This document shows, in pieces, positions 5,500-61,485 of a DNA stretch of 64,000 nt. Numbering within the stretch: position 1 is the first letter of the stretch; each line of letters begins with the position of its first letter. Position numbers and translations under genes: made by a program. Below the pieces are notes generated by a model that did not search any database, was not told the origin of the DNA, and was given only the letters and a program-made list of their open reading frames with translations. The stretch comes from Trypanosoma brucei (taxonomy: Eukaryota): NCBI GenBank assembly GCA_000002445.1, contig CP000071.1, positions 1,376,001-1,440,000 of the forward strand, read 5' to 3'.

Positions 5500-5520
5500 A
5501 TTTAAGAGGTGGGTTTGCTG

Positions 5521-5533
5521 CGTGTGTACGTGT

Positions 5534-5564
<31 letters not shown>

Positions 5565-5570: not shown

Positions 5571-5585
5571 GATAGCTTGATGACT

Positions 5586-5606
5586 GAAAAGGGAAAGAAA
5601 AGAAGC
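5586..5606 (-). promoter_or_regulatory. minus-strand polypyrimidine tract plus AG, the likely spliced-leader acceptor region for AAT copy 1
   Basis: The minus strand reads tttctttcccttttcAG about 85 nt upstream of the ATG at 5499. The same element recurs at 8569-8589, 11552-11572, 14535-14555 and 17517-17537. Confidence 0.55.
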
Positions 5607-21214: not shown

Positions 21215-23399
21215 TCAGTGGTTAGTGGTGGCAGTTCAAACTCAGACAATGAAAATACACGTGCCCGTGGTAGAGAAATTTCTGAGACTGTATACATGCA
21301 TACAGAAATGAATAGACATGTCTATGTCCATGCAACCCCAGTAGTTCGCGACATTGAACACACAAGCACACTGAGTTTCATAACCAATGCTTCCCTGTCG
21401 TTGCGATAAGGGCTTCAATTCACTCTCGTAAGCGAAGCCCCTGTGTCAGACGCGCGGTAAACAGCCACAGGTATGAAGAGACTTTCTTCTCCCTAACACA
21501 ACGCGGGTAACCAACCTCAACTTTATTCTTTAAAAGCTAAATCACTTGTACACCGCAAGGGAAAACAACTCGCCACCAACATGAATACAGCTTTGTGACA
21601 TCAAGGGGTCGGAAAGCTGAAATACTTGGCCCACATTAAAGTTAAACGATCAACATACGTACGAACAACCATACATATACACTTACATGTGCAGAAAGCT
21701 GAGAAAGACGTAGACTCTTCAGATATGGAAATACTGAAGACGACGTAAGAGCGACAACAACGGATAAAGAAAGATCCCTTCTTCACAACCGCAACAGTGG
21801 CAACCAAACGGTTCGTTAAATTTTTATTCGTGATCGCAGAGTGAACAAACCATGGTTGCCCACTAACAAATATAGCAGTATCAATAACAACAACAGTCCT
21901 GACAGCCGACGCTGATACTTCCACATCCATCACAACACTAAGCACACTGGACGTACCCTAACAGTCCCTACGGGCACGTTGTCATAAAACGAGGGCCCCG
22001 GTGCTACGAGCAATAGAATACGCAAAGGTCAAAACATCAGACCCATTTCCAGCCTTTGTTTATCTGTACCTTCTGATTTTATTTATTAAGAGTGATTTTA
22101 TTGCAAAAAAAACAGGAGAAGGGGGTCGTGCTTGGGTGTCAGTGCTATGCAATGTCAAATACCTACCATGGAATCGACGTTTTCACGTGCTTCCATGTTC
22201 ATTTGTACATGCCCCTTCAATGGGGGAAAGTGGACATTCTCTCATCTCTCCTCCCCTGAGCAGGTTAAATAAAATTAAAAGCCGCTCCACGTCAATTGGG
22301 GGGGGGCACTTGGTTAAAACAAACAACTATAACCGGCTGCCTGGAGAGGAGGTTCAGCTGTGTGCGCAGCGTGGCGCGAACCATCAACTGAGTCCCTCCC
22401 CTAGGGACACGAAAAATGCAAAAGAAAACACTTAGTGGTTGCCCTTAACTCGCCTCAGAATGGTGGCAGGCTTGTCATGAAGAGTCATTCCACAGAGACT
22501 CTTTGACAGAGGGGATACGTAAGTCAATAGTGGCAAAGACATATTTGAACTAAGATGTAGTAATGTTGATTATCTTGCGTTTGTAGAGGAGTGACTGTCA
22601 AGCTTAGCGGTAAAGTGCATGAGTAGAGAGGAACATTCACAACTATTCCATTCACACTCCACCACGTGGTTCGAGATGGAGCGGTAAGTCACTGCATATC
22701 CCCCTCCTTTCTGTGGGATATACTGACGAAGAGGAACCTAACGATCGGTGACAATGGAAAAAAACAAAGGAAAGGCACACAAACTTTTCCTTTTCATTGA
22801 CAATCACCCCTTCATTCTTACTAATACCTCATTCGAGGAAGAGGACGAAACTGATCAATTTTTTTGTTTGCTAAAAGCGAAAAAAAAAACATTGTTCTTT
22901 TTTTTTTGAGTGTTTTTGCACAGCTCCTCGAGGTGCCTTGAGCGCATATACTTCAGCACAAACACTTAATTGCAAAATGAAAAAGTTAAACCTTGGACTC
23001 TGCCAAACGCGTGTGTGCATATAATTACAAAAATAACGCACGCAAAACACTTTGTTTTCAATGTAGTGGCGGGGTGCGCAGTCAATCCGGGGTGATGCGT
23101 ACGTTGCGACCGCGTTGCGCAGCATAAGTGGGGGGAGCACTCGCAGCACTCGAGGCTGTCTTATCGCACTAATAGTCACCGTGTTTCGTAGTGGGGGGAA
23201 CCAGAAAGCAACATGTCTAGCACCGGACTTCGTACTGAACACTGCGGCCTCAACAACGAAGGGGGGAATGATAATAATACATAAAAGAAGTAATAAGGAA
23301 ACTCCGCCGCCCCTACACACGAAAAGAGAATTTATTTATTTATTTTTATGCGCACCGGAGGTACTCCCACACCCAGATCAACGACGACGGCGAGACTCG

Positions 23400-26300
23400 G
23401 AGCAACCCTAACCACCCTTCCCACTCAAAACACCACTAACGGTCCCGTCCCGTTCGCGCACGGTGCGAAATAGGGTGGACGCCTCATCCCAGAACAATGT
23501 CGAGGAAAGCAAAACAACGTTGGAAACGCCGAGCTTACATCACCTATGAACACCGCCGCAGGATGGAACCCAACGAAGGAAAACAGCGACCCCCCATAAC
23601 GGCAGCAGACCCGCAATAGCCCAACAACTGCAAATCGTAAACACCGGCTGAATCAGGCACCGGACGCCTCTCCATCCGCCCCTTGGCGAAGGTATATCGT
23701 GGGGGGGCTACTGTGGCATGCCGCCGTGGCACACGAAGACCGATGAAACGGCAGAACGGTGGGGAGGATTGGGAGCAGCGTCGTCCCACCGACGCGGAAA
23801 AGAAAGGACCTTCGTCCTCTCTCTGAAGCGCTGAGGGCTACGGAAGAAACAAAATGGCCCTCAAGCGCGACCCGTAGTGCTCGCCAAAGGGGAAACGGAG
23901 AAGTAAAGGGGACCCCTCAACAGCCTACAAAGCGAAGCCCCATAGGGTTCCACCTCGTTGCCCCTATGGACAACGGGAAGGGAGAACCCGTGGACCGCGT
24001 CCACAGGAAAATTGGAGAGGGCAAAAGGGAAACAGCGCCACCGAACTCGAGACCGGAAACGCCATCCACTAGCAGCCGCCTTGGCCTAAAGTCTGGCCGC
24101 GCTGCCCCACACCGGAGGCACACGCAGACATACATTTTCAAAAGCGCCTGCTTTGACATACCTCTCCGAAACGAACGTGGAGAACCAGCACCATGCACGA
24201 TATCTACGGAGGGATTGAGTAAATCGGTGGGTACCCTGGTTCGAAAGGGGCTTTCATTTCACGTAGAGCAATCGGCAGACCAGCTCACGGCCGTCGCCCC
24301 ATAAGTAAGCGACCAGAGTTCGAGAAGCCCCGTCCCCGTTCACTCGGCGCCACTATGCCCTTATTGGCGGGAAAACGCCTGTGCTCCTTTACCGAAAGCC
24401 GGGGTGTGCAGCGGCAGCTGCAGCAGTCACTTTCGAGCTGCGGACTTGGTGAGAAAGGAAGAAAGCGAACTGCACCCAATGCGCGCTAGGATCGCTACGA
24501 ACAAGAGAATGCAAATGGGAGCATGCATCCCAGTAAGGCGAAATTGGGACAACCGGCTTGAAAGGGCACCTGGCCGGTTTGTGCCCACTTAGCCGGAAGA
24601 CGAACCATAATTTAAAATTTGCGCATTGAGAGCTAAAAGAAGGAGGGGAGCACCGACAAAAAACTGTCCAGGGTCAGCCGCAAAACACGCCTACCTTCGA
24701 CAGCCCAACGCAAAATAAACAAGGAAAAAAAAACCGTCTTCGACGGAACGTTGGAAGAGGATCGCCTTCCAGGAAAATTGACGTAAGTAGGGATTCCTCA
24801 AGAGGGCTGGAGAAAGTTCAGCGACGCCACTAGCTACGTAAGGTAGAAAGTGGGATCGTTTATCTACCCTCGACGGATGGGAAAATCAGACCAGTTTGCG
24901 CCGCTTACCACGCCCGCACCCACAGGAGACGGAGGGCCCCCTCCTATGGCCATATTGCCATGTGTTAACCGTGGAAGGGGCGGCGACGTTCTGGCACGGT
25001 GGAACTCCTGTTTCGTATACTGGTGAAGCGTTCCGTGCGAGGAAGCACCCCGCACACGTGTTCACACCGCCAGCAGACGCGTCTGCGCGAACCACCATCT
25101 GTAACGGGGAAAAAATGCAACACCGCCCGCTAGCAGCGTGCCCCACAGTGGTTGGTGGACCTCTGCTCCCGTCTTGAGTGACCACTGAAAAACCATGGAG
25201 GCGGCGTGTCCGCTGGTCCGCCACGATGGGAAAACCACATCACCACGGGCGACAGCGAGGCCGCAACCACCGGCCGCCCGGATACGAGGGAAAAGTTGTC
25301 TACACCGGCACTACGCCGCTGCAGAGGCAATCGCGCCACCGAGTGCGGGGTGGTTCCGTTGAGCGACAGCCCCTATACATCGCCCTTTGGAATTGGAAGC
25401 CTCCCGGCCCCCCCCCCCCCACACACACGCACACGATATCGGCAGGTACTGCGCCAACGCACGAAAGCGCGGACGTTCCGTCTACAAAATGCACCTCGGA
25501 CGCACGACCAACGACAGGAACCCTGGTGGCTGAACTCCGGGGCCTCCTCCATACATAATGCCCCGGGGGGAATCAAAATGACAGCGAGGTGCGGCGGTTG
25601 GAACCGGTTGTACACAAGCGGCCGGAGAGGCCGACATATTCTGATTAATGGAAAACGATGCCTTAAGAAAAGAAGCACAAGCCACCGACAGTGCCACGGT
25701 TCTCCACCTTGTAGACGAAGACGCAGCCGTGGAGCAAGGAGGGAAGGAAGGAAGGCGGAAACGACAGCTGTACACCGAGTAAAAGGAACGCCGTGCAGCC
25801 CCACACTTGAAAGCATAAGGATATTGGAATGGCCGGCTCTCTTGGAGCCTGGCACTCGCGGTGTCGGGAGAGCTCTTTAAAGCAGTATAATCTGATAAGC
25901 CCTGATTTCACAGCGGCATCACAACAAACAAACGAACAGAAGGGGAAAAACAGGCACAACCCTCGAGTAAGCAAAGACTTTTCAGGGAACTACCAAACGG
26001 GTTTCTATAGAAAAATTCAACGAATCCTTGTGACGGTCACGGCACGATCGCAACGATATGCTGGTGCGCTAAACTGGTTTTGGCGAATCCCACTCCCCCT
26101 CATCACTCTCGCGTGGATCCAGTTTTCCTTAGATTTAGGTAACGGCATGTATAAGCAAGGCGTGTGGCGGGTTTGGTTATTAATTATTACTTAGTGCGAG
26201 AGCAGGGATCGGACATGGCTAGTTTTCTTGAAGTCGGCACCCGCTGGGGTGGAGAACAAACAGACTGAGCGAAACGGACGCCACAAGATTAGTCTGCGAT

Positions 26301-27300
26301 TAAAACACTTTGCGGAGAAACCGGGGATTAACGGTCCCCTAGCCACTGGTGAACGAGAACCCAAAAAGAAAAAAGATGAAATGATGCAGCATACCACACG
26401 AGGAAAGTGGAAGTGCGGACGAGCCCCCAAGTTCGGCAATGAACTGATTGCGTTTTCCCCTTCATCAAGCAGGAGAAATCCATCACCATCGAGTTAGCTC
26501 CCGTGTAAAGGAGGAACGCAGCGATGCATGGCAGTTAGCCGGACGCCGCAAATGGAAGACAGTGCACCCTGAGGGGCACAGAGATAAATGGGCATTGGAT
26601 ACTCCCAACCCCTAACAGTAGACACTGCCGGGCCCCCCTCCTCTTTCTCGTGCGCGCGCACCGTCGCACATGTGGCAGCACTAACGATTCAGCGGAGCAC
26701 GCAATTCCTGGGGGGCTCAACGCCCCCCCCCTCGCAATCACACACACACGCACACCACCGAAAAAAACACTCCCACGTCCGGAGTGAAATCGCCTGTTGG
26801 GCCTCCGCCACACTCCCGAGCCATTCCAACCTGCAGCGGCTTCGAGACCCGACAACGGCAGTAAATCGTCATAGCAAGCGCTGCAAGGGTGAAATGGTCG
26901 TCAGGAGGATGCCCTCTGACGGCGCCGGCAGCCACGCCACAGTGTCAGAGAACCGTGCTCCGTCCAAAAGGAAGTTGAGAGGCGGTTTCCTGTTCGCGTC
27001 ATCGAAATGGAGAGAGCACTTGACATGTAACAACCAAAACGGCGATACGGAGGATCACTGGGGCTTGGGGGAGGGGGAAGTGCGCTTCCACAGCTGGGAA
27101 CGCATACTCGCCCTCAGTGTTTGCCCACTGTTCTTACTGCCAGATGGTCGAGACAGTGGGGTGACAGCACTATGCGGCCATACTGAAGGGCATGAGGGGA
27201 AGGAAAGAACTGCTGTTGGGATTATGCTGAGAACAGTGGTAAAAATGGGAGATGAGAGCGAGTTAACGAAAGGAGGGAGCCGTGGCAACTAACACAGTGC
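23400..27300. other. roughly 4-kb GC-rich island without a credible ORF, possibly a degenerate retroelement or other non-coding insert, nature unresolved
   Basis: There is a sharp rise in G+C with C-runs (25410-25421, 26680-26700). Only short overlapping ORFs occur in all six frames, with stop-free stretches in shifting plus-strand frames, and there is no intact protein. The flanks are ordinary coding or AT-rich DNA. Confidence 0.4.
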
Positions 27301-27584
27301 AGGGGAAAACGCATATCACCAGCAATCCCTTCCTTAGCTTTTGCGGGAGCATTTCATACATGCACGTAACGCATGCTTACACAGCGGTTACGGAGCAACA
27401 CCCACATCTTGACGAAGCAACGACAGAAAGAAACTGATCTCACATTCTCCACAAATTACTACCAACTGGGGTTCAAGCGCGCAACAACCCCCTAAAGTTG
27501 GTTTGTATTGCAAATGTCACGCGCGAAAGAAAGAAACAGCGAGAAAACGAGATGGCAATCCGCCAAGCAGCATGCCTGCGCCGC

Positions 27585-28851: not shown

Positions 28852-31800
28852 TTAATGTGTCTTCCTTGAAGATTCAGCAGGCGCGGGCTCACCTGCCAAA
28901 CCATTTTTTCCATCTACCCCGTTCAATTTGGACGTCGATTTGGTACCCCTCACATCGGCTATTCGGCCCCGACGATACTGCGCCGACGGACCGCGAACAA
29001 GGTCGGACAATGGCAAGGGCCGCGTCGGAACCCATGAGGCTCCATTGCTGTTATGAACCACGTCCTGCGTAGCATTATCGCGTGTCTTCTTCAATAAATC
29101 ATGTTCAACAGCGGTGTCAGCCCTGTTTTTCTCAAGAGTGGCGCGAAAGCATCGGAGGTCGCGTTCATATTTCAGCAAAAAAGTTCCGATGGAGTCAAGG
29201 ACGTACCCCTTATATCTACCGGTTTTCAGAGGTTCATCATAGTCCTCTTCCTTCTCCTCATCGGCACTTTCATCACCACCGGCTTCCTCCCCCGCACCTC
29301 CAAGCCCTGCCTCCAAGTCGCTGCCTTCACCAGTGCGCATGGCCTCCTCATGCTGCTCAAACCGCAGCAAGTCCTGTAGCGAGGGGGTCTGATCCCGCTG
29401 CTTCGAAAGCACCTTTCTAGATGCCCTCTGAAGATTTTTTAGATGAACCATAAAATCATCGATCAATTGATGTCGAGCATCATCCTCCTCCTTTTCCAAT
29501 TCTACAAAAACCTTGTGGGACACCTTCTGGACTTTTTGGGTCAAAAAGTCTTTGAGCTCAAACAACGCTTGCAGATCGCTCTTTTCCTCATTGACGATTG
29601 CTAAGCGGCTGTTGTGCTCCACACCGTATATGTCCTCCATGGCATTCTTATGTTCATGTGCCCTTCGATTTAAAAAGCGGTTAGCCAAACGTCTCCGCGC
29701 CCTATAAGCAAATATGACACTTTTGATTAAGGAGGTAGCTTCCTGCTTTTGCACCTCTTTTTTCGCCACTTGCTCATCCTTTTCGCGTTGTTCTTGGGCG
29801 GTTAGTGCATCACGTGCTGAGGTCTCACGTGCACAATTAATGGCTTTCACGGACTTCCGTTCTTCGGCTTCGATGGCATGACGCTTTTCTGTTTCTTTTT
29901 TCGAAAGAGCCACAACACACTCTATTAACCTTAGTGACAACATTTGTGCCTGCCTAAGGTCCTCTATCTCCTCCTTTTCGCCGGCCTCCACCTCACGACG
30001 AGCACCCGGCTCCTCCTCTCCAACCAAACGTTTCACCTTCTCAGCTGCTCTCCTTCTATTTTCCATCGTTTTCTCCTCATCCTCACACGTTAGCATTATG
30101 TGATCCCTGTCGTGTCTCTCGTCCTCTTCATGGAGAGATCGTGAGCGATTTTCTAATACCAGTAGTTCCTCCAATTCAGCATCGAACTCTTCCATACGTC
30201 GACGGCGTAGTGCCAACAATTCATCTCCTTCTGGCCGATCTCCCTTTTCGGCGCTTCCTTCAGCGTCACGCTCCGATGCACATAGAGCGTCCGCTTCACG
30301 GTGGTCAGTGAGACCGCTTATACTACCATCGTTAACGATAGCACCTTCACCTTCTACAACATCAGTAACGCCACCATCGCCTTCGGCGTCCTCAGCATCA
30401 GCCGCACATATTGACCCACTTTTTCCATCATCACAGACACCCCCAGCCACGGCCACCGAGCTTGTCTCGTCTCCAACAACTTCAGCACCAGCAGCCGTCT
30501 TTAAGTTATCGCTCTCTTCACCAACTCCAGCATCAATGGAAGGAGCCAGAGCACCTTCGGAAGCATCATCGTGATCCCCCTTTACTCCAACAGCAGCGTC
30601 GTCAACTACAGTTTCCGCATCACCAACAAGCGCCTCCTCCTCACCGTCTACGGCGGCACCTCCATCGGAGAAAAAGTGTGTTTTCCTTCTTTTCTGGCCT
30701 CTCATTTTGTGCAACTTTCTCCGCGAGCACGCATCGAAGCTCACCACCTCTGTTTCCTTAAAACACTCCATGGCACTTTCGTTGGGCATCAGCATCAAAG
30801 AAGATAAATGTTGATTTTGATCGGCATCCACAATACTCAACCTACTCTTTCGCGGCGACACGTTAAAAGACTTTCTAGAGCCAGTGCCAACCAAATTAGA
30901 AGCTCCCTCGGCAGCATTACCACCGGAAGGCGTCATAAGAATAACAAAAGACATAGCCCTCTTTCTTCCATCACCCCGAGCGTCGCAACAAGAAAGATAT
31001 TCACCACGCCTATTCATTTCCTCCTCCAACTCACGCAGCGCGTCGGCGTTCTTGACGGGATCACGCATCAGTTCGTCATACCGAGCGCACTGCTGTTGGA
31101 AAGCCGGGTCACGAAGCAACATAGTCAAATCATTAAGACCATCAAGAGAAGAAAGGAATGGATACTTCAAAAGCAACGCACACCTAATCGACTCATTAAG
31201 CGCCAGCTCATCAGCACGAGCACGCAACGCCTCCTCCAACTCTGTCAGTCGCTCCGCATTTGCCTCGGCGTCCTCAAGCGCGGAGAGGTGCTCATTAAAC
31301 AATTTCTGATACCCATCATCTTTGGAAAGCGGTATGTCACTGAGGAGCACGCACTTACGATCTTCGTACAAAAGGAAGGGATTGCACGCACGCACATACT
31401 CATTGGCGTCTTCACTCTCCTTCTCAGCCAGTCTTGCAAGACGAGCAAGGTCCTTAACCCGCTGCAACATCTCTTTTTCAATCGCTACTGCGCCTTTGGC
31501 ACCACCAGCAAGTTTTGCCTGTCGAGCACGACGACGACACAGTTGAGAAAACATTGCATCATCATTGATTGGAAGCTCACCAAGAGGAATACCCATTACT
31601 CGTTTCGGAAGGAAGGGATACTGTTTATGGACCGCATCCGTTTTCGTAGCATTCTCCTCGGCCAATTGCGTCACGAGCGCCTTCATTTTCTCCTCCATAG
31701 CAGCAATTGTCTCGGAATTGCCTTCCCAATCGAGGCGTAGCTCGTCCAGCTCATTCGACAGGTCACGGAACTCCTGTTGCTGAGCAGGTCGCACATCTGC

Positions 31801-34800
31801 GAGACACACACCACGCACAGGCTCTTCGGGCAAGAACGGGTAACGCTCACGGAGGTCCTCAGCACGGACTGCGGCACGGAGCCTAGAGGAACGGAGGTCA
31901 CTCACGATTTTGTCAGCAGCGTCACGCAATAATTTCTCCTGCTGAGCCCGGGCCGTCGGATCCATATTAGATGCATCCTGCGTGTAGCGAGATGCTAGCT
32001 CCGCAAATGTGGGATCTGACATGAGATGCAACTCGCCCAGCGGGATCCCTTTCAAGGTGCGTCCCAGAAACGGGTAAGCTGCTGCAAGGGACTCCTCTTC
32101 GGCCTTGCGTTCTTCAACAATCGCCCTCACTCGCTTGGCCAGTCCAGCCTCAGCCTCTCGAATAACCTCTGCATTTACTTCGTTAGGTCCCTTCGCTTTC
32201 TCTTCATCGCGTCTCTTCATGAGTTCACAGAATTCGTCGTCATCCTCCAACGTCAAGTCCCGCGGAACCTCAGCCAGCAGCGAAGGGTCAACAAAGGAGT
32301 ACAGTGAAGCATCGCGTGCAGCTGCTCGCTGCTCTGCTGATTGGAGCTTCAGAACGTCTCCTGCAATTTGGCCTGCTCGTCGGCAGAGTTGCTCATATAT
32401 TTGCTTCTCGAGGGGTGATTCGGGCTTTCTACCATCGGGAACAAGTTCGTTGTACCGCGCCAGCAACTCCTGGAAGTACGGGTCATCCTCAAGGTACAAC
32501 TCAGCCTGCGACACACCCAAAAACGTCTCCGGAAGAAAAGGGTACACAACAGCAGCAACGCTCCCCCTAGCGCCAGGGAGTCCACCAGCAAAACTTTCAC
32601 CATCAGAACTAGTCCTTGCACCCTTTGCTGCACTTGTTCCATCTAACGCACCTGCACCTCCCACACTGCCAGACGCGGTCGGGTCACCACCAGCTGCACT
32701 CTTCATGCTCAAGCTCATCTCACGTTCAAGCTGGCGCAGCGCGTCGGCGTTCTTGACGGGATCACGCATCAGTTCGTCATACCGAGCGCACTGCTGTTGG
32801 AACACCGGGTCATGTAATAGCTTCTCCGACAACTCGAGACCGTCTTGTGAGGCAAGGAATGGACATTTATTAAGCAACGCGCGCCTAACCGACTCATTAA
32901 GCGCCAGCTCATCAGCACGAGCACGCAACGCCTCCTCCAGCTCTGTCAGTCGCTCCGCATTTGCCTCAGCGTCCTCAAGCGCGGAGAGGTGCTCATTAAA
33001 CAATTTCTGATACCCATCATCTTTGGAAAGCGGTATGTCACTGAGGAGCACGCACTTACGATCTTCGTACAAAAGGAAGGGATTGCACGCACGCACATAC
33101 TCATTGGCGTCTTCACTCTCCTTCTCAGCCAGTCTTGCAAGACGAGCAAGGTCCTTAACCCGCTGCAACATCTCTTCCTCAGTCGCTACCGCATCTTTGC
33201 CACCGTCGCTGCTACTCTTCTGCTGCAACCAGCGCTGGCCCAACTGAGAAAACATTGCATCATCATTGATTGGAAGCTCACCAAGAGGAATACCCATTAC
33301 TCGTTTCGGAAGGAAGGGATACTGTTTATGGACCGCATCCGTTTTCGTAGCATTCTCCTCGGCCAATTGCGTCACGAGCGCCTTCATTTTCTCCTCCATA
33401 GCAGCAATCGCCTCTGCGTTGCCTGCCGGATCGCGGCGTAGCTCGTCCAGCTCATTCGACAGGTCACGGAACTCCTGTTGCTGAGCAGGTCGCACATCTG
33501 CGAGACACACACCACGCACAGGCTCTTCGGGCAAGAACGGGTAACGCTCACGGAGGTCCTCAGCACGGACTGCGGCACGGAGCCTAGAGGAACGGAGGTC
33601 ACTCACGATTTTGTCAGCAGCGTCACGCAATAATTTCTCCTGCTGAGCCCGGGCCGTCGGATCCATATTAGATGCATCCTGCGTGTAGCGAGATGCTAGC
33701 TCCGCAAATGTGGGATCTGACATGAGATGCAACTCGCCCAGCGGGATCCCTTTCAAGGTGCGTCCCAGAAACGGGTAAGCTGCTGCAAGGGACTCCTCTT
33801 CGGCCTTGCGTTCTTCAACAATCGCCCTCACTCGCTTGGCCAGTCCAGCCTCAGCCTCTCGAATAACCTCTGCATTTACTTCGTTAGGTCCCTTCGCTTT
33901 CTCTTCATCGCGTCTCTTCATGAGTTCACAGAATTCGTCGTCATCCTCCAACGTCAAGTCCCGCGGAACCTCAGCCAGCAGCGAAGGGTCAACAAAGGAG
34001 TACAGTGAAGCATCGCGTGCAGCTGCTCGCTGCTCTGCTGATTGGAGCTTCAGAACGTCTCCTGCAATTTGGCCTGCTCGTCGGCAGAGTTGCTCATATA
34101 TTTGCTTCTCGAGGGGTGATTCGGGCTTTCTACCATCGGGAACAAGTTCGTTGTACCGCGCCAGCAACTCCTGGAAGTACGGGTCATCCTCAAGGTACAA
34201 CTCAGCCTGCGACACACCCAAAAACGTCTCCGGAAGAAAAGGGTACACAACAGCAGCAACGCTCCCCCTAGCGCCAGGGAGTCCACCAGCAAAACTTTCA
34301 CCATCAGAACTAGTCCTTGCACCCTTTGCTGCACTTGTTCCATCTAATGCACCTGCACCTCCCACACTGCCAGACGCGGTCGGGTCACCACCAGCTGCAC
34401 TCTTCATGCTCAAGCTCATCTCACGTTCAAGCTGGCGCAGCGCGTCGGCGTTCTTGACGGGATCACGCATCAGTTCGTCATACCGAGCGCACTGCTGTTG
34501 GAACACCGGGTCATGTAATAGCTTCTCCGACAACTCGAGACCGTCTTGTGAGGCAAGGAATGGACATTTATTAAGCAACGCGCGCCTAACCGACTCATTA
34601 AGCGCCAGCTCATCAGCACGAGCACGCAACGCCTCCTCCAGCTCTGTCAGTCGCTCCGCATTTGCCTCAGCGTCCTCAAGCGCGGAGAGGTGCTCATTAA
34701 ACAATTTCTGATACCCATCATCTTTGGAAAGCGGTATGTCACTGAGGAGCACGCACTTACGATCTTCGTACAAAAGGAAGGGATTGCACGCACGCACATA

Positions 34801-37800
34801 CTCATTGGCGTCTTCACTCTCCTTCTCAGCCAGTCTTGCAAGACGAGCAAGGTCCTTAACCCGCTGCAACATCTCTTCCTCAGTCGCTACCGCATCTTTG
34901 CCACCGTCGCTGCTACTCTTCTGCTGCAACCAGCGCTGGCCCAACTGAGAAAACATTGCATCATCATTGATTGGAAGCTCACCAAGAGGAATACCCATTA
35001 CTCGTTTCGGAAGGAAGGGATACTGTTTATGGACCGCATCCGTTTTCGTAGCATTCTCCTCGGCCAATTGCGTCACGAGCGCCTTCATTTTCTCCTCCAT
35101 AGCAGCAATCGCCTCTGCGTTGCCTGCCGGATCGCGGCGTAGCTCGTCCAGCTCATTCGACAGGTCACGGAACTCCTGTTGCTGAGCAGGTCGCACATCT
35201 GCGAGACACACACCACGCACAGGCTCTTCGGGCAAGAACGGGTAACGCTCACGGAGGCCTTCAGCACGGACTGCGGCACGGAGCCTAGAGGAACGGAGGT
35301 CACTCACGATTTTGTCAGCAGCGTCACGCAATAATTTCTCCTGCTGAGCCCGGGCCGTCGGATCCATATTAGATGCATCCTGCGTGTAGCGAGATGCTAG
35401 CTCCGCAAATGTGGGATCTGACATGAGATGCAACTCGCCCAGCGGGATCCCTTTCAAGGTACGTCCCAGAAACGGGTAAGCTGCTGCAAGGGACTCCTCT
35501 TCGGCCTTGCGTTCTTCAACAATCGCCCTCACTCGCTTTGTTTTGTTAAGTTCTATTTGCTGCTTCTTTTCGTTGTCTGTTACTGTTCTTTGTTCTTCCT
35601 TCAGTAGCTGCTGTATTTCGTTGTCTTCGTATATGTTTAAGGATGCTATTTTTATACCCTTTACTGTCTTTTGTATATTCTGAAAATTTTTCATAAGTCT
35701 TCCTACCTTTCTTTCTTCTGCTTCGATCTCGCTGCGGAAGGCTTTGTGCAGCTGTGATTTTCTCTTCGCCATTCTTGTTTGAAGGATGCGCTGCAATTTG
35801 ATACCTGCGGGAGTACCTTCTTCCTTAATTCTTTGATATTCGCGATGGAGTTCCTGGTAATATTTATCATTCATTATTTCCTCCTCAATGTAAGTGTTTA
35901 TTTCGTCTTGAGAAAGTCCAGTATCATGAGTATCCTTTATTTCATCATCACTGACATCCGACGGTGTTGATGTCATTATCTCCTGCGTCGTTCTGGCCAG
36001 CTCAGCTTCAAGCCTCTGTAGCTTCTCAGCGTTTTTGTCTATATCGTCCATGAGTTCATCATGATCGCCAACAAGTTTTGCGACAAGTGGGTTGTGGAGC
36101 ATGTTGGGGTCGATGTTTCGCCCAAGCATCGGGTATGTTTTGCGCAGCTCATCTACTTCGCGCACCTTGGCTGCCCGACCCTTGCGTTCATTTTCAAGTA
36201 TGTCGCGCACGCTATTAAGGAGATCGGGATGAACTGCATCAGGCGATCCGTCGCCTGTCATTGCAAGGACTCCTTGGCTTTCTAGGAGACGAATGTCCTC
36301 TAGACTAAGTGGCTTCAGTTCGTGGAACATCTCCATTATCTTTTCAATCTTCTTTATCTCCTCCAGGGCAATTTCATCTGCTCTACATGCAAGTCGGAAT
36401 CGAACACTAGCGACGGAGTCTTCATCCAATTTGAATCGTTGCAGAAGAGATTTGTACTCAGCAAGAAGCTGGTTGAACAGGTTGTCCTCGCTCAAGCGAA
36501 TGTGACGCAAAGGAAAACACTTCCGCGTTGTGTAAATAAGAAAGGGGTTTCCGGAGAGTACAGCATCATCGGCATCGGCGAGCAGAACTTCACTTAAGTG
36601 TGCGCCAGACGCAAGTTGCACAACCCTTGACTGAAGCACAGTTTCTTTTTTCGTTGTGGTCTCCTTCTCAGAAGCGGCAAATACTTCATCATCTTTGATT
36701 GGAAGCTCACCAAGAGGAATACCCATTACTCGTTTCGGAAGGAAGGGATACTGTTTATGGACCGCATCCGTTTTCGTAGCATTCTCCTCGGCCAATTGCG
36801 TCACGAGCGCCTTCATTTTCTCCTCCATAGCAGCAATCGCCTCTGCGTTGCCTGCCGGATCGCGGCGTAGCTCGTCCAGCTCATTCGACAGGTCACGGAA
36901 CTCCTGTTGCTGAGCAGGTCGCACATCTGCGAGACACACACCACGCACAGGCTCTTCGGGCAAGAACGGGTAACGCTCACGGAGGTCTTCACTCTCGATG
37001 GCTTCACGCCATTGGCGCACATTGCTCTCACGAGCGATGGCAAGTGCGTGGTTTAGCATCTCCCTTACAAGCCGCTTTCGCCGAAGATCGTTGGAGGTAC
37101 CAAGTGAGTTGGGGAGCTTTGAATACTGCTCTGCTTTCTGCGCAAACTTTTGGTTTTCTTCCAAATGCATGGTTGACGTATCTATACCTTCCATCCTACT
37201 TGGAATAAAGGGATATTTTTGGTTGTGCTCTTTGATCTGCGTCGTGCGCCTCACGGCAAGCCAAGCCACACGGTCGTTGGCGCGCGCGTTGAGCTTGTCT
37301 ACTTCCGCTACGACGACTGGTTTCATTGCGGTAAGTTTCTCACGAGCTATCACAAGAGCCATGAACTCATTATCCCCTTCCACGTCAAGGGCATCCAGGG
37401 TGAATCCGAGGTGCCGACGGCTTACAAATGGGTATTTGGCCTCTGAACGCTGTCGCCTTCTGAAACGGTTTGCATTTACCTTCCGTACCCAAACATTCAT
37501 CTGGAGTACCCGCTCCTCCATCTGATGTGTAAGCCCCAGTGCCGTTGGTGAATCATCTGCGTTGTTCTTGAACTCGGCATTGCGGCGTTGGGATAAAACC
37601 ACGTAGTAATCATCACGCATGTTCGGCACGGTTTCCACTACAAAATTCTCTGTTGTGAAACTTTCAACGTCGTAGTTCAGCCTCTGCAGTTCATTATCGT
37701 CGTGGCGCCGTGCCGCAAGGTGATGCACCGCCACCGCCAGTTCTGATTGCAACTTGCTATCAGTATTCTTCTTCGCTAACTGATCCATCAGCGTTGCCGC

Positions 37801-40800
37801 CGCCGAGTCCTCATGCAACCGTAACATAGAAAGTCGTTGATGATAAGGCCTTTCCTCAAGAAAGGGAAACTGCTGATGTAACTCCTCGTCGTCCACCGCG
37901 AGGCACGTGCGCACGATGGAAGCCCGTTCCCACATGGCTTCAAGCTTCGCAGATATTAGGGCATGGATCCATTCTGCTTCGGCGTCCCCACGGGAAACAC
38001 AAAGGCGATGCACGCGAAGAAGGTCATGCAGGTGTGTATCTCCGGCAAGATCGGTAGCAGAAACGGAGTAGCGCTTTGATGACGAAAGCCAGGGCGACAA
38101 CTCCTTCCGCCACCGAAAGGCGTCGAGCTCGATCTCATCAACACGGCTGGCCAGCTGACCCTGAATTTGCACAAGGCCTGGTCCTAAAGATTGTGACATG
38201 GTGCATTTTCGTATCTGGTCAATTAGTGTTCTAACTTGTTCATCCTCCAACACGTAAATCCATGGTATCGGAAGCATGAGGTTGACGTACCCCCCGTGCG
38301 TATCGCTAAACTCCTGTTCCTGGCGGTCGACAAAAGCCCGTTCAAGAGCTGTATCCTTTGCCTTCTTGGCAACATACTCACATATAGCATACTCCAAGGC
38401 GTTCGTTTGTTTAGAATCATCGCTGCTGCGCAACTTATGCACAAGATCCATAAAAAATCCATCGTCTTCAAGTCTGAGGCTTGCCGTCCGCACCCCATGG
38501 ACCTCGGCGCGAAGGAAGGGGTACCGTTTTAGTATATCACCCTCTTGGATGGAACGATGTAGCTCCCACATCCGCTCCTTCATTGCCTGTTCCAGTTGCC
38601 TGCTCTCAGTTGTGTCCTTGCTTGCTCGCGCCCGCTGATGGGCAAGTTCAACGAACACCTCATCTTCCAGCAGCCGAACATCAACAAATGGAAAGCTGTC
38701 GACACGAGTTGCAAGGAAAGGATACCTCTGCAAGATCCCACGATATACCACTGGCCTGGAAGAGAGGTGCTGCTCGAGATAACGAAGGTTCTCTAGATAC
38801 GCCAAAAAATCAGGATCGTCTTTCGGTACACCGGCTTTGTCGAACGCAAGACCGGCCCTCTTGAGCGACTCTCCCGCATCACTTAAGCGATTAAGGTCAA
38901 TTTCAATCGCACCTTTGTTATTTTGTACGACAGCATACTCCCTACTCTGAACACCAAATAAGTCTGCCGCCTTATCTCCGGCCTCCCGCAGCAACGTCAT
39001 ACAGTGCTCTACATATTTTTCACGATCCCATGAGCGGTAAATGTGTGCACCATCAGTTAAAAGGGACGGCAAGTCGCGCGATTCAGTTGGTTTCTTCTTG
39101 CTAATTGTAATCGCGGTGAGAAGTACACGTATTGCGTCCTCGTACCAACCTTCAGACTCAAGTTGCAGACTTAAGTCCCACAGATAGTACATAAAATAGT
39201 CTGACGCCCAACCAATGGTACTGAGTTCGACAGAATGGCTCACGAGCTCCTTTGTGTTAACGGAGCAAGAGGGAAGAAGTTGTTTACACTGAAGAAGCCC
39301 CTTGTACGGCTGAAGATGCAGCCATGCACCGTGCTCACTCTTAAGATAGCCCGGAAGCTTTTCGATAGCACTATAGAAGTGCTTCGCAGCCTCCTCGACA
39401 CAGCTTCTGTAAGTGGCCAGCTCGTCAGACTGATACAACGTCGCCACGCGCAGCAGCCAGAAGCCATACTCAATGTGAAGGCGGCCTTGCGTTACAGGGC
39501 CCGTCAATTCTTCGAAACCGCGCATTGTGTCAGGAAACAAGCCCCGGCCCTCCGCAATGTAGTCTTTTTCCATAGTTGCAAAGCACACCTCGCACACGCT
39601 ACGGCGCGAATAGAGGGGTGACAGGCTCACAGGAGCACACAGTTCCATGTGCGCTTTTGCAGTTTCACGTACTAGGGCAAGTGCTTCATCATAATGCCCA
39701 TCCCAGCACGCCACCTTCCATCGGACCGGCAGACAAAAGGCATACCGATAACCATCTTGTGTAACGATTGTCCTGTATTTTTCACTTAGTGCGCGAACAT
39801 ACTGAGGATCTATCAATTTGGGTAATACACTGGCGTTGACGTGGGCGTGCCATCTCATTACTGTGTGATTTTTGGAAGTTTTTTCAATGGAAACTCCAAT
39901 AAGGGCACATATGCGCGCCACAATATCCGCCTTCCTCCCCATACGTATGTCTGTTAGGGACTTGATGAGATCCTCATCGGAATCTATTATGCCATATTTC
40001 TTGGCTACAACCTCCAAAAAGATACTGCGGAAATTATCCAGGTTTGTGAAGGCTGCCCCGATGTGTTTCGAGACGGTGCCGGCCAGTATATCGTCATCGT
40101 ACGCCACGCGTTTTCCTTGAACTTCCAAATAGAACTCCTGTTTCACCGACCGTGCAATCATTTCAATGGATATCAACTCCCTCACTCGTTGTGTCACATC
40201 AGGGGAATACCTCCCCACACCCTCAGTTTTACACACCACTTGCTTCAGGAGGCACATGTTGATGCCGATTGAGTGCAGCACATCGCACAGTTTCCTCAAG
40301 CGCTCGCCGTTTGAGCGAGACTCGCTGTCCACACAAGCGTGCACAATGCGGTCGAGCACTTCAGTGTTGTCAAGCAACGAAACTGTGTCCATATGACCAT
40401 CTGTCACATTGCCACAAAGCCTCAGCATCTCTTGGCGCTTCATGATTGTATCGTCAACAAACAACGGGGTTAGAGTTGAGTTGGAATTGGTTAGGTACAG
40501 GCGGCCATCCAATCCCTCATACACCTCAAGAGTGCCGTCGGGAAATGGGATATTGAGAGCATCCGCCATGTGGAGGATCTCCGCCTCGACCTCGCTGTCA
40601 TCTGTGGATTCAGCCCCATAAAGGCGGGTCGGGTTGGCCGACATAGGGACTAAGGCCTGCGCAAGCACAGGCATTCCGCGGTAGAAAATCATGCAGGAGA
40701 GCGGCACAGTCAACAGGCGGCTACGACTCTGCAGCACACCGCGGAGTGAGGCCACATAGTTCCTTCCCGAACGGCTGTCAGGTAGAACACGGAAGAAAAT

Positions 40801-41307
40801 GTTGTCCACGCGATAACACTGCAGAAATTTCGGGAGCTCCCGAGGCCCGTTATCGTCGAGCGTCACGATCTGCTTCGCCTTGCGGGTGGCCTCCTCCACG
40901 AACTCCTTCTCAATCCGGCGAAGCGCCTCCATCCGGCTCACAGCCTGGGAAATGGTGTTGTCCTCCGCTTCCCACGCAAACTGGAACTCTGCATTCCAAT
41001 TCCTAGCATACCGCGTGATGTCAGCACAAGACGCAAGAAATGGCTTCGGTGCCGTCTGCTGCATCGGAAACGCAGCTATTTTTCTGATGGAAAGTCTATG
41101 CCGGGACGCCTCCAGCATTGAAACGTGACGTTGTGCTGTACGCTGGGAACTAGTGCTTGTCAATCGCGAATAAGAGGATCGCACATCCTCGATTGGAACT
41201 CCCTGGTTTTCGGGGGTGGTAGGAAACATTACACCCGGCTTCCGGTCCCGTGCATTCGAATCAACTGATGGATTACGGCGCTGTTCATTTTGATTGCGCC
41301 GTCTCAT
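28852..41307 (-). CDS. giant repeat protein (4,151 aa) with a non-repetitive N-terminal ~1,000 aa that may carry a CLU-like domain (tentative), then more than 25 copies of a ~20-aa YPFL motif, and an acidic low-complexity C-terminus
   Basis: This is a single uninterrupted ORF starting at the ATG at 41307 (MRRRNQ). Motif instances include LRERYPFLPEEPVRGVCLADV, HKQYPFLPKRVMGIPLGELPI, AAAYPFLGRTLKGIPLGELHL, LQRYPFLATRVDSFPFVDVRLL and NQKYPFIPSRMEGIDTSTMHL. The N-terminal region contains a G-L-D-G-R-L-Y-L-T segment reminiscent of the CLU-domain GxDGRxYxLD signature. The C-terminus is rich in E, D, G, A and V. Confidence 0.75.
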   Translation of the reverse strand: MRRRNQNEQRRNPSVDSNARDRKPGVMFPTTPENQGVPIEDVRSSYSRLTSTSSQRTAQRHVSMLEASRHRLSIRKIAAFPMQQTAPKPFLASCADITRYARNWNAEFQFAWEAEDNTISQAVSRMEALRRIEKEFVEEATRKAKQIVTLDDNGPRELPKFLQCYRVDNIFFRVLPDSRSGRNYVASLRGVLQSRSRLLTVPLSCMIFYRGMPVLAQALVPMSANPTRLYGAESTDDSEVEAEILHMADALNIPFPDGTLEVYEGLDGRLYLTNSNSTLTPLFVDDTIMKRQEMLRLCGNVTDGHMDTVSLLDNTEVLDRIVHACVDSESRSNGERLRKLCDVLHSIGINMCLLKQVVCKTEGVGRYSPDVTQRVRELISIEMIARSVKQEFYLEVQGKRVAYDDDILAGTVSKHIGAAFTNLDNFRSIFLEVVAKKYGIIDSDEDLIKSLTDIRMGRKADIVARICALIGVSIEKTSKNHTVMRWHAHVNASVLPKLIDPQYVRALSEKYRTIVTQDGYRYAFCLPVRWKVACWDGHYDEALALVRETAKAHMELCAPVSLSPLYSRRSVCEVCFATMEKDYIAEGRGLFPDTMRGFEELTGPVTQGRLHIEYGFWLLRVATLYQSDELATYRSCVEEAAKHFYSAIEKLPGYLKSEHGAWLHLQPYKGLLQCKQLLPSCSVNTKELVSHSVELSTIGWASDYFMYYLWDLSLQLESEGWYEDAIRVLLTAITISKKKPTESRDLPSLLTDGAHIYRSWDREKYVEHCMTLLREAGDKAADLFGVQSREYAVVQNNKGAIEIDLNRLSDAGESLKRAGLAFDKAGVPKDDPDFLAYLENLRYLEQHLSSRPVVYRGILQRYPFLATRVDSFPFVDVRLLEDEVFVELAHQRARASKDTTESRQLEQAMKERMWELHRSIQEGDILKRYPFLRAEVHGVRTASLRLEDDGFFMDLVHKLRSSDDSKQTNALEYAICEYVAKKAKDTALERAFVDRQEQEFSDTHGGYVNLMLPIPWIYVLEDEQVRTLIDQIRKCTMSQSLGPGLVQIQGQLASRVDEIELDAFRWRKELSPWLSSSKRYSVSATDLAGDTHLHDLLRVHRLCVSRGDAEAEWIHALISAKLEAMWERASIVRTCLAVDDEELHQQFPFLEERPYHQRLSMLRLHEDSAAATLMDQLAKKNTDSKLQSELAVAVHHLAARRHDDNELQRLNYDVESFTTENFVVETVPNMRDDYYVVLSQRRNAEFKNNADDSPTALGLTHQMEERVLQMNVWVRKVNANRFRRRQRSEAKYPFVSRRHLGFTLDALDVEGDNEFMALVIAREKLTAMKPVVVAEVDKLNARANDRVAWLAVRRTTQIKEHNQKYPFIPSRMEGIDTSTMHLEENQKFAQKAEQYSKLPNSLGTSNDLRRKRLVREMLNHALAIARESNVRQWREAIESEDLRERYPFLPEEPVRGVCLADVRPAQQQEFRDLSNELDELRRDPAGNAEAIAAMEEKMKALVTQLAEENATKTDAVHKQYPFLPKRVMGIPLGELPIKDDEVFAASEKETTTKKETVLQSRVVQLASGAHLSEVLLADADDAVLSGNPFLIYTTRKCFPLRHIRLSEDNLFNQLLAEYKSLLQRFKLDEDSVASVRFRLACRADEIALEEIKKIEKIMEMFHELKPLSLEDIRLLESQGVLAMTGDGSPDAVHPDLLNSVRDILENERKGRAAKVREVDELRKTYPMLGRNIDPNMLHNPLVAKLVGDHDELMDDIDKNAEKLQRLEAELARTTQEIMTSTPSDVSDDEIKDTHDTGLSQDEINTYIEEEIMNDKYYQELHREYQRIKEEGTPAGIKLQRILQTRMAKRKSQLHKAFRSEIEAEERKVGRLMKNFQNIQKTVKGIKIASLNIYEDNEIQQLLKEEQRTVTDNEKKQQIELNKTKRVRAIVEERKAEEESLAAAYPFLGRTLKGIPLGELHLMSDPTFAELASRYTQDASNMDPTARAQQEKLLRDAADKIVSDLRSSRLRAAVRAEGLRERYPFLPEEPVRGVCLADVRPAQQQEFRDLSNELDELRRDPAGNAEAIAAMEEKMKALVTQLAEENATKTDAVHKQYPFLPKRVMGIPLGELPINDDAMFSQLGQRWLQQKSSSDGGKDAVATEEEMLQRVKDLARLARLAEKESEDANEYVRACNPFLLYEDRKCVLLSDIPLSKDDGYQKLFNEHLSALEDAEANAERLTELEEALRARADELALNESVRRALLNKCPFLASQDGLELSEKLLHDPVFQQQCARYDELMRDPVKNADALRQLEREMSLSMKSAAGGDPTASGSVGGAGALDGTSAAKGARTSSDGESFAGGLPGARGSVAAVVYPFLPETFLGVSQAELYLEDDPYFQELLARYNELVPDGRKPESPLEKQIYEQLCRRAGQIAGDVLKLQSAEQRAAARDASLYSFVDPSLLAEVPRDLTLEDDDEFCELMKRRDEEKAKGPNEVNAEVIREAEAGLAKRVRAIVEERKAEEESLAAAYPFLGRTLKGIPLGELHLMSDPTFAELASRYTQDASNMDPTARAQQEKLLRDAADKIVSDLRSSRLRAAVRAEDLRERYPFLPEEPVRGVCLADVRPAQQQEFRDLSNELDELRRDPAGNAEAIAAMEEKMKALVTQLAEENATKTDAVHKQYPFLPKRVMGIPLGELPINDDAMFSQLGQRWLQQKSSSDGGKDAVATEEEMLQRVKDLARLARLAEKESEDANEYVRACNPFLLYEDRKCVLLSDIPLSKDDGYQKLFNEHLSALEDAEANAERLTELEEALRARADELALNESVRRALLNKCPFLASQDGLELSEKLLHDPVFQQQCARYDELMRDPVKNADALRQLEREMSLSMKSAAGGDPTASGSVGGAGALDGTSAAKGARTSSDGESFAGGLPGARGSVAAVVYPFLPETFLGVSQAELYLEDDPYFQELLARYNELVPDGRKPESPLEKQIYEQLCRRAGQIAGDVLKLQSAEQRAAARDASLYSFVDPSLLAEVPRDLTLEDDDEFCELMKRRDEEKAKGPNEVNAEVIREAEAGLAKRVRAIVEERKAEEESLAAAYPFLGRTLKGIPLGELHLMSDPTFAELASRYTQDASNMDPTARAQQEKLLRDAADKIVSDLRSSRLRAAVRAEDLRERYPFLPEEPVRGVCLADVRPAQQQEFRDLSNELDELRLDWEGNSETIAAMEEKMKALVTQLAEENATKTDAVHKQYPFLPKRVMGIPLGELPINDDAMFSQLCRRRARQAKLAGGAKGAVAIEKEMLQRVKDLARLARLAEKESEDANEYVRACNPFLLYEDRKCVLLSDIPLSKDDGYQKLFNEHLSALEDAEANAERLTELEEALRARADELALNESIRCALLLKYPFLSSLDGLNDLTMLLRDPAFQQQCARYDELMRDPVKNADALRELEEEMNRRGEYLSCCDARGDGRKRAMSFVILMTPSGGNAAEGASNLVGTGSRKSFNVSPRKSRLSIVDADQNQHLSSLMLMPNESAMECFKETEVVSFDACSRRKLHKMRGQKRRKTHFFSDGGAAVDGEEEALVGDAETVVDDAAVGVKGDHDDASEGALAPSIDAGVGEESDNLKTAAGAEVVGDETSSVAVAGGVCDDGKSGSICAADAEDAEGDGGVTDVVEGEGAIVNDGSISGLTDHREADALCASERDAEGSAEKGDRPEGDELLALRRRRMEEFDAELEELLVLENRSRSLHEEDERHDRDHIMLTCEDEEKTMENRRRAAEKVKRLVGEEEPGARREVEAGEKEEIEDLRQAQMLSLRLIECVVALSKKETEKRHAIEAEERKSVKAINCARETSARDALTAQEQREKDEQVAKKEVQKQEATSLIKSVIFAYRARRRLANRFLNRRAHEHKNAMEDIYGVEHNSRLAIVNEEKSDLQALFELKDFLTQKVQKVSHKVFVELEKEEDDARHQLIDDFMVHLKNLQRASRKVLSKQRDQTPSLQDLLRFEQHEEAMRTGEGSDLEAGLGGAGEEAGGDESADEEKEEDYDEPLKTGRYKGYVLDSIGTFLLKYERDLRCFRATLEKNRADTAVEHDLLKKTRDNATQDVVHNSNGASWVPTRPLPLSDLVRGPSAQYRRGRIADVRGTKSTSKLNGVDGKNGLAGEPAPAESSRKTH
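31030..35535. repeat. near-identical 1,701-bp (567-codon) tandem repeat inside the giant CDS, about 2.65 copies
   Basis: The ORFs 32105..33010 and 33806..34711 and their neighbours are identical at an offset of 1701 bp. Copy boundaries are at about 31030, 31310, 33011, 34712 and 35535. A dispersed partial copy of about 310 bp lies at 36690-37000. Confidence 0.9.
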
Positions 41308-42179
41308 TTCAACGAAACTGACAGCAAAACAGACACAAAAATGAGTACTAAGTTACCTGAACCTCCCGGTACTTTGGTTTTTTTTCTTTCTATTATCTAA
41401 AAACAAAGCCGAAGACCTGCCGGGCAGACGGGTGCGCGAAGAAAAAAAATGCCGCAACAACGAAGGATGTTTGCTTCAAAGGCTTCGCAAAAAAAAAAAA
41501 ACAAAGTTTCTAGTCTGCCTCCGAAGATGATAATGACAGCAAGTTAAATAAACAAAAAGAGGTAAACTTCAACATGTGAAATAATAACCCTCGTGTGGCG
41601 TTTCACCACCGTTGGGATTCGTAACATCGTGGGAGGAGGGTACGCAGAAGTGATCCCCTCATTGTCCCGCAAAGCACCTAACGCAGCGGCAAAAAGGAAG
41701 TGCTTCGCAGCCATCAATACGCCGTAGCACCACTGCTGCAGGGAAAAAATAACATTCTCCCCAACATACAGAGCCATACACATCATAAGTTTCCCCACCG
41801 ATACCCACCACCACCACCACCTCTAACTGAAGCACTTTGGTCAAATTCACAAAACGAACCGTTCCCACCTGCCAGTCCACCTCATTAACACACCGGCCCC
41901 ACTTCGCATTAATGACTAACGCTGATCACCCAACCCCCGGAACAGAGATAAGTGAACAAACCCGCGTGTGGCCGAGTGAGCATCGCGTACACACAAGAAT
42001 GGGCAACTAGTTGCTCCTGACACGGTAAGCAAAAAAAAAACTCTATAGTGAACAAGCGCATGAGCTATTCGTGGTAACATTTCCACACAGCCGGCTATCC
42101 AACCCCTCAACATACATTACCATCACCGTACCGCTATTATTTGTTTTCCTCCGAGCATCGCGCCACAACGTATGAACTG

Positions 42180-53444: not shown

Positions 53445-53751
53445 AGCCTCCTTGGTGATTAGCACGCTGCAAGGCAGACGTCAAACCACTGGAAGTACAG
53501 GTGAGACAGGTGGGAGTGAGAAGGACAAAAGTGGTAACCACAAGCATTAGCTGCCACAAAGGTGGTCAGAATGAGAGAAAGTCTTCAGGTGGCGACAAAA
53601 ACAAGAATTAAAAAAAAAGTGGCGTGAGGGGTGTTACTGAGTAAATCTTTTTTTTTAAAGCAAAGTTCGATCCGGTTTCAACGAAACTTATCGGCAACTG
53701 CATGCCCATGTAACACGAGAAACTAAAAGGAAATACCAAAACCGAGCGGCA

Positions 53752-61040: not shown

Positions 61041-61485
61041 TGTTCCCACCTTCGCCTTTCAAGGATTTTAACACCCCGCTTTTAGAAGACTAGAGCAGTG
61101 TTCGGTGTTTCCCGTGTCGCACGTTTCTCCGGTTTGTCTCCGCCTTCTCCTTCCTTTTTCGTTGACAAAAATTAAAAGTAGCAATCGACAAAACAGAAGG
61201 AAGCGAACCAAAGTTCTTACAAAATTGCAATACCTACCACAAGGAGGTTTTTATACCCGGCCAGATCGTTGGGTAATATAAACTGAAGACAAGTTATTGG
61301 AAAGTAATAGCTTCAGAAGCGCTAGCCGATCCCTTTAAAGAAATAAAACCTGTTCCGGAAGATAAAACATTTTGGTATGGTGAATAAAAACGCCATTTTA
61401 CCGTCCACAGGGCCTAGCATCTATGATCCTATACAGGTCACATCTATGACCACACACCATGTCCACACACCATGTCCACTCGCTG

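Follow-up and report, generated by a model that had tools for sequence, protein, structure and literature searches.

A giant open reading frame of Trypanosoma brucei matches the flagellar protein FLAM3 and combines a CLU-containing head with an array of DUF7623 repeats

We analysed a stretch of 64,000 nucleotides of Trypanosoma brucei DNA (contig CP000071.1, hereafter the window), with the focus on one giant open reading frame (ORF) at 28852..41307 on the minus strand. The data are best explained if this ORF is FLAM3 (FLAgellar Member 3, Tb927.8.4780), a structural protein of the flagellum attachment zone (FAZ), from T. brucei or a near-identical strain, and we regard this assignment as very likely. 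The ORF listing and the translation revealed a single uninterrupted frame that starts with ATG and comprises 4151 codons plus the stop codon, without an internal stop. This confirmed the ORF reported in a first-pass annotation that had been made from the letters of the window without database searches. The encoded protein is predicted to have 4151 aa, a mass of 468.13 kDa and an isoelectric point (pI) of 5.2. Both the protein and its repeat family are already known: FLAM3 has been studied experimentally and the repeat is catalogued in Pfam as DUF7623. The first-pass annotation had called the protein uncharacterised, a label that no longer applies given that it matches FLAM3, whose localisation, RNA interference (RNAi) phenotypes and partners are published.

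Identification of the ORF

FLAM3 was described by Rotureau et al. 2014 and Sunter et al. 2015 (PMC4541047). Four independent descriptors coincide with it, as ORF length, mass, CLU domain and 567-aa repeats all agree. For C-terminal tagging of FLAM3 a fragment was used that comprises 'nucleotides 11656-12452' of the ORF, 'lacking the Stop codon'. This fragment fits an ORF of 4151 codons, and published FLAM3 and the window ORF are alike in having 12,453 nt before the stop. In a table of a FAZ review, Tb927.8.4780 is listed with 468 kDa and a 'Clu domain', in agreement with the computed mass. According to Sunter et al. 2015, T. brucei FLAM3 has an N-terminal CLU domain and repeats of ~1.7 kb (567 aa), which amount to ~2.7 x 567 aa. 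The CLU domain of the window protein is likewise N-terminal, and its 567-aa repeats amount to ~2.65 copies. Thus, no difference was detectable by the published descriptors. Resolving the repeats into ~30 DUF7623 units from aa 860 onwards, and recognising a TPR-like part in the head, only refines the FLAM3 description and introduces no difference.

The published data place FLAM3 in the detergent-resistant flagellar skeleton, at the flagellum side of the FAZ and in the flagella connector (PMC4541047 and FAZ literature). Upon depletion of FLAM3 the FAZ becomes shorter and trypomastigotes take on an epimastigote-like form (PMC4541047), and the abundance of FLAM3 limits the length of the FAZ that is built. 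Depletion of FLAM3 also removes ClpGM6, and depletion of ClpGM6 reduces and redistributes FLAM3. The orphan kinesin KIN-E binds FLAM3 and is needed for its entry into the flagellum. FLAM3 further interacts with FAZ27, each depending on the other for stability or localisation, and associates with cAMP-BP1 at the flagella connector. Leishmania FLAM3 is a marker of the FAZ domain in the flagellum and requires FAZ27 and FAZ34. The earlier guess of a modular scaffold of cytoskeletal or flagellar nature agrees with these data. The guess of a mitochondrial association found no support, since there is no published evidence for a mitochondrial role of FLAM3.

The DUF7623 repeat array

The Pfam family DUF7623 (PF24610) matched the window protein in 26 stretches with 616.9 bits (E=3.5e-190; gathering score 27). 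A single unit on its own reached 53.5 bits. The window protein is therefore a member of this family, and no difference from it was seen. The first-pass annotation had noticed a Y-P-F-L motif in more than 25 copies and had not recognised it as a named repeat family. The repeat is real, but it does belong to a known family and is homologous to the 68-aa repeat of ClpGM6 and to the H49/FRA/Ag1/JL7 repeat. Neither by sequence nor by fold did the unit match TPR, HEAT or spectrin repeats. Further weak Pfam matches of the whole protein (VipB_2, KorB, DUF1902, CsoSCA_cat and others) stayed below the cut-offs and were put down to noise within the repeat region.

The strict pattern [YFN]PF[LIV] occurs 24 times in the protein, the match at aa 872 overlapping that at aa 862. 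In composition-preserving shuffles of the residues (n=1000) it occurred 0.07 times on average and at most twice. A hidden Markov model (HMM) built from the protein itself detected 30-31 units between aa 860 and aa 3441, a count that leans high because the model is self-fitted. The array thus spans 2,582 aa and starts well upstream of the 567-aa repeats. It had been placed correctly in the centre of the protein, but its extent (~3,000 aa) and that of the head (~1,000 aa, in fact ~860 aa) had been set too large. The proposed spacing of 60-80 residues holds for most units (61-81 aa), except for a few gaps of 94-218 aa.

The units follow the consensus xxYPFLPxrvxG(i/v)pLxeLxLxdDxxFxxL...D(P)xxNAeal..LEeem..Rv..LA. 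Among the copies there are 20 distinct unit sequences, which share only 16-33% identity with one another, and hence the array is old. Despite this divergence, the YPFL, G.PL.EL, DD..F and NA..L..LE positions recur in most units. DDxxFxxL had been taken for part of an acidic linker between motif copies. It is instead a conserved part of the unit and lies at the start of the first helix. An AlphaFold2 (AF2) model of 5 units (pLDDT 75.8) contained the helical hairpin that had been considered for the repeat. In most of the five units a short beta-bridge or turn precedes two helices, the first of ~13-16 residues and the second, long one of ~30-40 residues, with a loop between them. We infer from this model that the unit may consist of a short extended 'YPFLP..G.PL.EL' clasp that packs on a helix-loop-long-helix hairpin, without a relative in the PDB.

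Super-repeats of 567 residues

At the DNA level the gene has a period of 1701 nt (567 aa) with ~2.65 copies. This repeat was recovered with find_repeats, whereas Tandem Repeats Finder, limited to periods of up to 500, did not report it. The last ~19 units are arranged as 2.65 copies of the 567-aa block, each block holding 7 units. Super-repeats 1 and 2 differ at 4 positions in 1701 nt and are 99.8% identical in protein and DNA alike; the first 1050 nt of super-repeat 3 have 92.6% DNA identity to super-repeat 2. An additional near-identical piece of the super-repeat was found at aa 1444-1543. Judged by these identities, the block appears to have been duplicated or homogenised very recently. With super-repeats 1 and 2 being almost the same, the unit copies are not independent, and the count above 25 was inflated, as no more than about 17-20 of the unit sequences differ from one another.

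The plus strand carries antisense ORFs in the repeats, of 301 aa (32105-33010 and 33806-34711) and of 150 aa (32989-33441 and 34690-35142), each present twice with an offset of exactly 1701 nt. The simplest explanation is that they are by-products of the repeated coding sequence and not genes.

Near-identical 1.7-kb repeats can be collapsed or expanded during assembly, so that the motif copy number would in part be an artefact. The 4 differences in 1701 nt between super-repeats 1 and 2 favour such an error, as do the orthologous loci in draft genomes, which are visibly fragmented or partial. However, the ~2.65 copies found here equal the published ~2.7, and the reading frame is intact over all repeat junctions. 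An assembly artefact is accordingly an unlikely source of the copy number.

The N-terminal head and the C-terminal tail

Homologues of the non-repetitive head were found in Leishmania, Trypanosoma and others, with 34-50% identity. The AF2 model of aa 1-860, made with a 14-row alignment, had a pLDDT of 67.6 overall and was confident for aa 310-850. The predicted order is a stretch of ~120 aa that is of low confidence or disordered, followed by the CLU domain, a helical middle and a TPR-like solenoid.

The CLU domain (PF13236) scored 49.5 bits in the whole protein, 52.4 bits in the N-terminus and 58.8 bits in aa 103-320 (cut-off 24), and it was matched in all 14 aligned homologues. The first-pass annotation had proposed a CLU domain on the basis of a GLDGRLYLT segment. 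The domain proved to be real, but the segment (aa 265-273) lies just past the HMM alignment (aa 103-247), and the isolated fragment has no Pfam match. Within it, D267, R269, Y271 and T273 are invariant in the 14 homologues. The CLU-central segment is borderline: the whole protein gave 19.5 bits and the isolated N-terminus 22.4 bits (cut-off 22; profile positions 9-60 of 171). It was matched in 7 of the 14 homologues, with a best E of 1.5e-5.

The solenoid was predicted with a pLDDT of mostly 80-94. A Foldseek search of the head against the PDB gave the TPR domains of LGN/Pins as best coherent matches, with a TM(target) of 0.62-0.72 over ~360 columns, which corresponds to a generic TPR fold. 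No Pfam TPR family matched the window protein, and none of these families matched more than 2 of the 14 homologues. A sequence search of the PDB with the N-terminal profile gave 0 matches at E<=1. Based on these predictions, the head (aa ~100-850) looks like a whole module of CLU, CLU-central-like and TPR-like parts.

With its CLU domain, borderline CLU-central match and TPR-like solenoid, the head resembles the order of domains in CluA, CLUH and Clu1(TIF31). It would thus be conceivable that the protein is a CluA/CLUH-like cytosolic factor, mitochondria-associated or mRNA-binding, with the repeat array as an appendage, as the CLU match is above threshold and the canonical order is kept. In contrast to these proteins, the window protein lacks CLU_N, for which a Pfam scan of the entire sequence found no match at E<=1, its CLU match is partial (profile positions 1-173 of 225), and its head is followed by ~3,300 residues that comprise the DUF7623 repeats and the tail. 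By published tagging, FLAM3 is located in the flagellar cytoskeleton, the FAZ and the flagella connector, and the reported phenotype concerns FAZ length and not mitochondria. Its authors called the function of CLU in FLAM3 unclear (PMC4541047). Taken together, a CLUH-like role is very unlikely.

The C-terminal region is acidic (20.6% D+E, pI 5.1). By eye, it consists of a G/A/D/E-rich low-complexity stretch followed by a charged E/K/R-rich stretch. No Pfam family was found in it at E<=1 and no domain was recognised.

Relatives of the repeat

According to a 2026 survey, DUF7623 is largely specific to trypanosomatids and tied to calpain-family proteins. The similarity of the FLAM3 repeats to the 68-aa repeat of ClpGM6 has been reported (PMC4541047). 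For the T. cruzi antigen Ag1/FRA/JL7/H49 a synthetic peptide has been published (KKKLADRAFLDQKPEGVPLRELPLDDDSDFVAMEQERRQLLEKDPRRNAREIAALEESMNARAQELAR), which maps to the cysteine peptidase TcCLB.511441.10. This FRA/H49 peptide scored 85.2 bits on DUF7623, and in a direct alignment it was 38% identical to FLAM3 units (E=5e-9). Hence the 'YPFL' repeat is the well-known FAZ/cytoskeletal repeat of 68 aa.

A profile of 15 FLAM3 units retrieved only 108 proteins from 1.84 billion representatives. Ten of these were looked up, and the 9 clusters with names were all trypanosomatid (Leishmania, Porcisia, Phytomonas). By annotation, one class combines CLU and repeats as in FLAM3, exemplified by a 4583-aa Porcisia 'Clu domain-containing protein'. 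Another combines calpain and repeats as in ClpGM6/H49 and reaches 7062 aa. Giants with repeats only, or without a name, include 'Tb-292 membrane associated protein-like' proteins and a 7614-aa 'DUF7623 domain-containing protein' of Porcisia. In addition, a 4334-aa protein from a Logan assembly contains 8 weaker DUF7623-like stretches (E=3.4e-15) and may represent a further class of giant repeat proteins with degenerate unit copies.

Under the name 'calpain cysteine peptidase, putative', T. cruzi marinkellei has a 220-aa protein that represents a DUF7623 fragment of the FLAM3 type. It is 56% identical to the window repeat, and extended parts of it recur in the C-terminal portion of a T. conorhini fragment. 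A calpain domain is not on record for this protein, and its name was probably transferred via the shared repeat.

The calpain-like FAZ proteins ClpGM6 (Tb927.11.1090) and T. cruzi H49/FRA/Ag1/JL7 have the DUF7623 family in common with FLAM3. As published, ClpGM6 and FLAM3 both reside in the FAZ flagellum domain, give an equal RNAi phenotype and are mutually dependent. The end domains of ClpGM6/H49 are calpain-like, whereas FLAM3 instead has the CLU-TPR head and no calpain domain. The units of FLAM3 are diverged and organised in the 567-aa higher-order repeat; ClpGM6, in contrast, exceeds 660 kDa and has uniform 68-aa repeats.

The antigen homology raises the idea that the array serves mainly as an immunodominant decoy or antigenic repeat and not as a structure. 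The T. cruzi Ag1/FRA/JL7/H49 repeat is a classic serodiagnostic antigen, and Leishmania FLAM3 has been flagged as a candidate for balancing selection. However, FLAM3 is an intracellular protein inside the flagellum, and its RNAi gives a morphogenetic phenotype. The recurrence of the key positions in strongly diverged units suggests a structural constraint, and antigenicity as a by-product is compatible with a structural role. We consider the decoy idea highly improbable. That the ORF is another DUF7623 protein than FLAM3, of the ClpGM6/H49 calpain-like or the Tb-292-like repeat-only type, could be argued from the occurrence of the repeat in such giants and from the calpain name of the T. cruzi marinkellei fragment, but it is extremely improbable and was ruled out by the CLU head, a hallmark of FLAM3, by the missing calpain domain (no match of the calpain family in the Pfam scan of all 4151 aa at E<=1) and by a length, mass and super-repeat that fit FLAM3.

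Gene neighbourhood and orthologous loci

All sizeable genes of the window lie on the minus strand, an arrangement that fits the polycistronic units of kinetoplastids. The positions of the features are collected in Table 1. Neighbours of FLAM3 include five tandem amino-acid transporters and a Rab-type GTPase, and also genes with Nop, WD40, Band-7, MIF4G and RRM domains. The transporter array has a period of 2982-2997 nt, and sampled 300-nt copies are 99-100% identical. Its first copy is longer than the others (532 aa versus 458 aa). The array coincides with a strong AT skew (~0.2) and with the lower GC of the first 18 kb. The ORF of the family-B DNA polymerase is listed with a TTG start, and already from its first residues the product aligns to the exonuclease profile, entering it at position 157 of 242. 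The N-terminus proper is therefore probably encoded further upstream than the listed start, or else past the end of the window.

Between a 265-aa ORF without Pfam match and the Rab-type GTPase gene, a region of ~6.3 kb (~21215-27584) reaches a GC of up to 0.56. It holds no ORF of at least 250 aa, and five ORFs tested from it gave no Pfam match. Rfam and tRNA scans of the window gave no matches.

A Nop-domain gene also precedes the FLAM3 orthologue in T. conorhini (MKKU01000489.1), where an extra CLU gene separates the two. This CLU-only gene (2033-4066) encodes ~677 aa and is 46% identical to FLAM3 aa 104-774. 'Clu domain-containing' proteins of ~700 aa also occur in T. cruzi, T. grayi, T. theileri, T. 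melophagium and a Leishmania species. In the window, no second CLU copy was found by tblastn and the gap between FLAM3 and the Nop gene is only ~870 nt (41308-42179), so T. brucei has no CLU-only paralogue at this locus. The T. conorhini orthologue (5064-13675) is split into gene models of 238, 2008 and 550 aa and more, and the segment equivalent to FLAM3 aa ~104-245 is present twice in each T. conorhini CLU gene. The split models and the doubled segment are probably an artefact of the draft assembly or its annotation.

Leishmania FLAM3 is LdBPK_161760 on chromosome 16, and the best named Leishmania match of the window protein, LPMP_161630, is likewise on chromosome 16. The gene neighbourhood is consistent with the FLAM3 locus only in an indirect way.

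Table 1. Positions of the FLAM3 features and of neighbouring genes in the window
Feature	Position in the window	Strand	Residues and details	Basis
Complete coding sequence, very probably FLAM3	28852..41307	-	4151 aa	ORF and translation; size, mass, CLU and 567-aa repeats match published FLAM3
Non-repetitive N-terminal module	38731..41307	-	aa 1-859	Homologues and AF2
CLU domain (PF13236)	40567..41001	-	aa 103-247, profile positions 1-173 of 225	Pfam
Borderline CLU-central / eIF3_p135-like segment (PF12807)	40132..40293	-	aa 339-392	Pfam
Predicted TPR-like alpha-solenoid	38758..39810	-	aa ~500-850, ~17 helices	AF2 and Foldseek
DUF7623 repeat array	30985..38730	-	aa 860-3441, ~26-30 units of ~65-80 aa	Pfam and own HMM
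Super-repeat 1	33784..35484	-	aa 1942-2508, 567 aa	7 DUF7623 units and G/S/A-rich insert
Super-repeat 2	32083..33783	-	aa 2509-3075	1701-nt period and unit map
Partial super-repeat 3	30985..32082	-	aa 3076-3441, ~0.65 copy	1701-nt period
C-terminal region, acidic	28855..30984	-	aa 3442-4151	Composition
Tandem amino-acid transporter array (Aa_trans)	4123-5721, 7120-8496, 10103-11479, 13086-14462, 16068-17444	-	Five genes; array 4103-18781	Pfam
Kinesin	50400-53465	-		Neighbour gene
EML-like double beta-propeller WD40 protein	57426-61049	-		Neighbour gene
Family-B DNA polymerase ORF	61486-63945	-		Near right window end

Discussion

Several points weigh against the assignment to FLAM3 or against what we derive from it. 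The identity is based on four matching quantitative descriptors and not on a residue alignment to Tb927.8.4780, and the closest database relatives of the protein are ~50% identical. Assemblies are prone to miscounting 1.7-kb repeats that are 99.8% identical. The AF2 model of the unit was built from a shallow 8-row alignment and has moderate confidence. With regard to the mechanism, the KIN-E and cAMP-BP1 papers report no domain mapping of FLAM3, and the packing between units, the rod shape and the binding of ClpGM6 through the repeats are only what we infer.

Assuming that the ORF is FLAM3, the ~30 units of clasp plus hairpin would form an elongated, semi-rigid rod that could act as spacer and scaffold in the flagellum domain of the FAZ. 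The repeat type that is common to FLAM3 and ClpGM6 may be the basis of their co-assembly and co-stabilisation, and the CLU-TPR head may be a module for protein docking. A more far-reaching version is that DUF7623 is a structurally new module, that the arrays of FLAM3 and ClpGM6 co-assemble unit-to-unit into a heteromeric fibre whose stoichiometry sets the FAZ length, and that the head is a repurposed CLUH-like docking module. A fibre of this kind would explain the mutual dependence of both proteins. We put this version forward as a tentative proposal that is rather doubtful.

The role of FLAM3 in FAZ length and cell shape has been known since 2014-2015. The level of FLAM3 helps to set the length of the FAZ and therefore the trypomastigote versus epimastigote shape of T. 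brucei. The start of the array at aa 860, the 7 units per block, the fold prediction of the unit, the apparent CLU, CLU-central-like and TPR-like make-up of the head, and the rarity of the repeat with 108 representatives may aid deletion or structural work on FLAM3 and ClpGM6.

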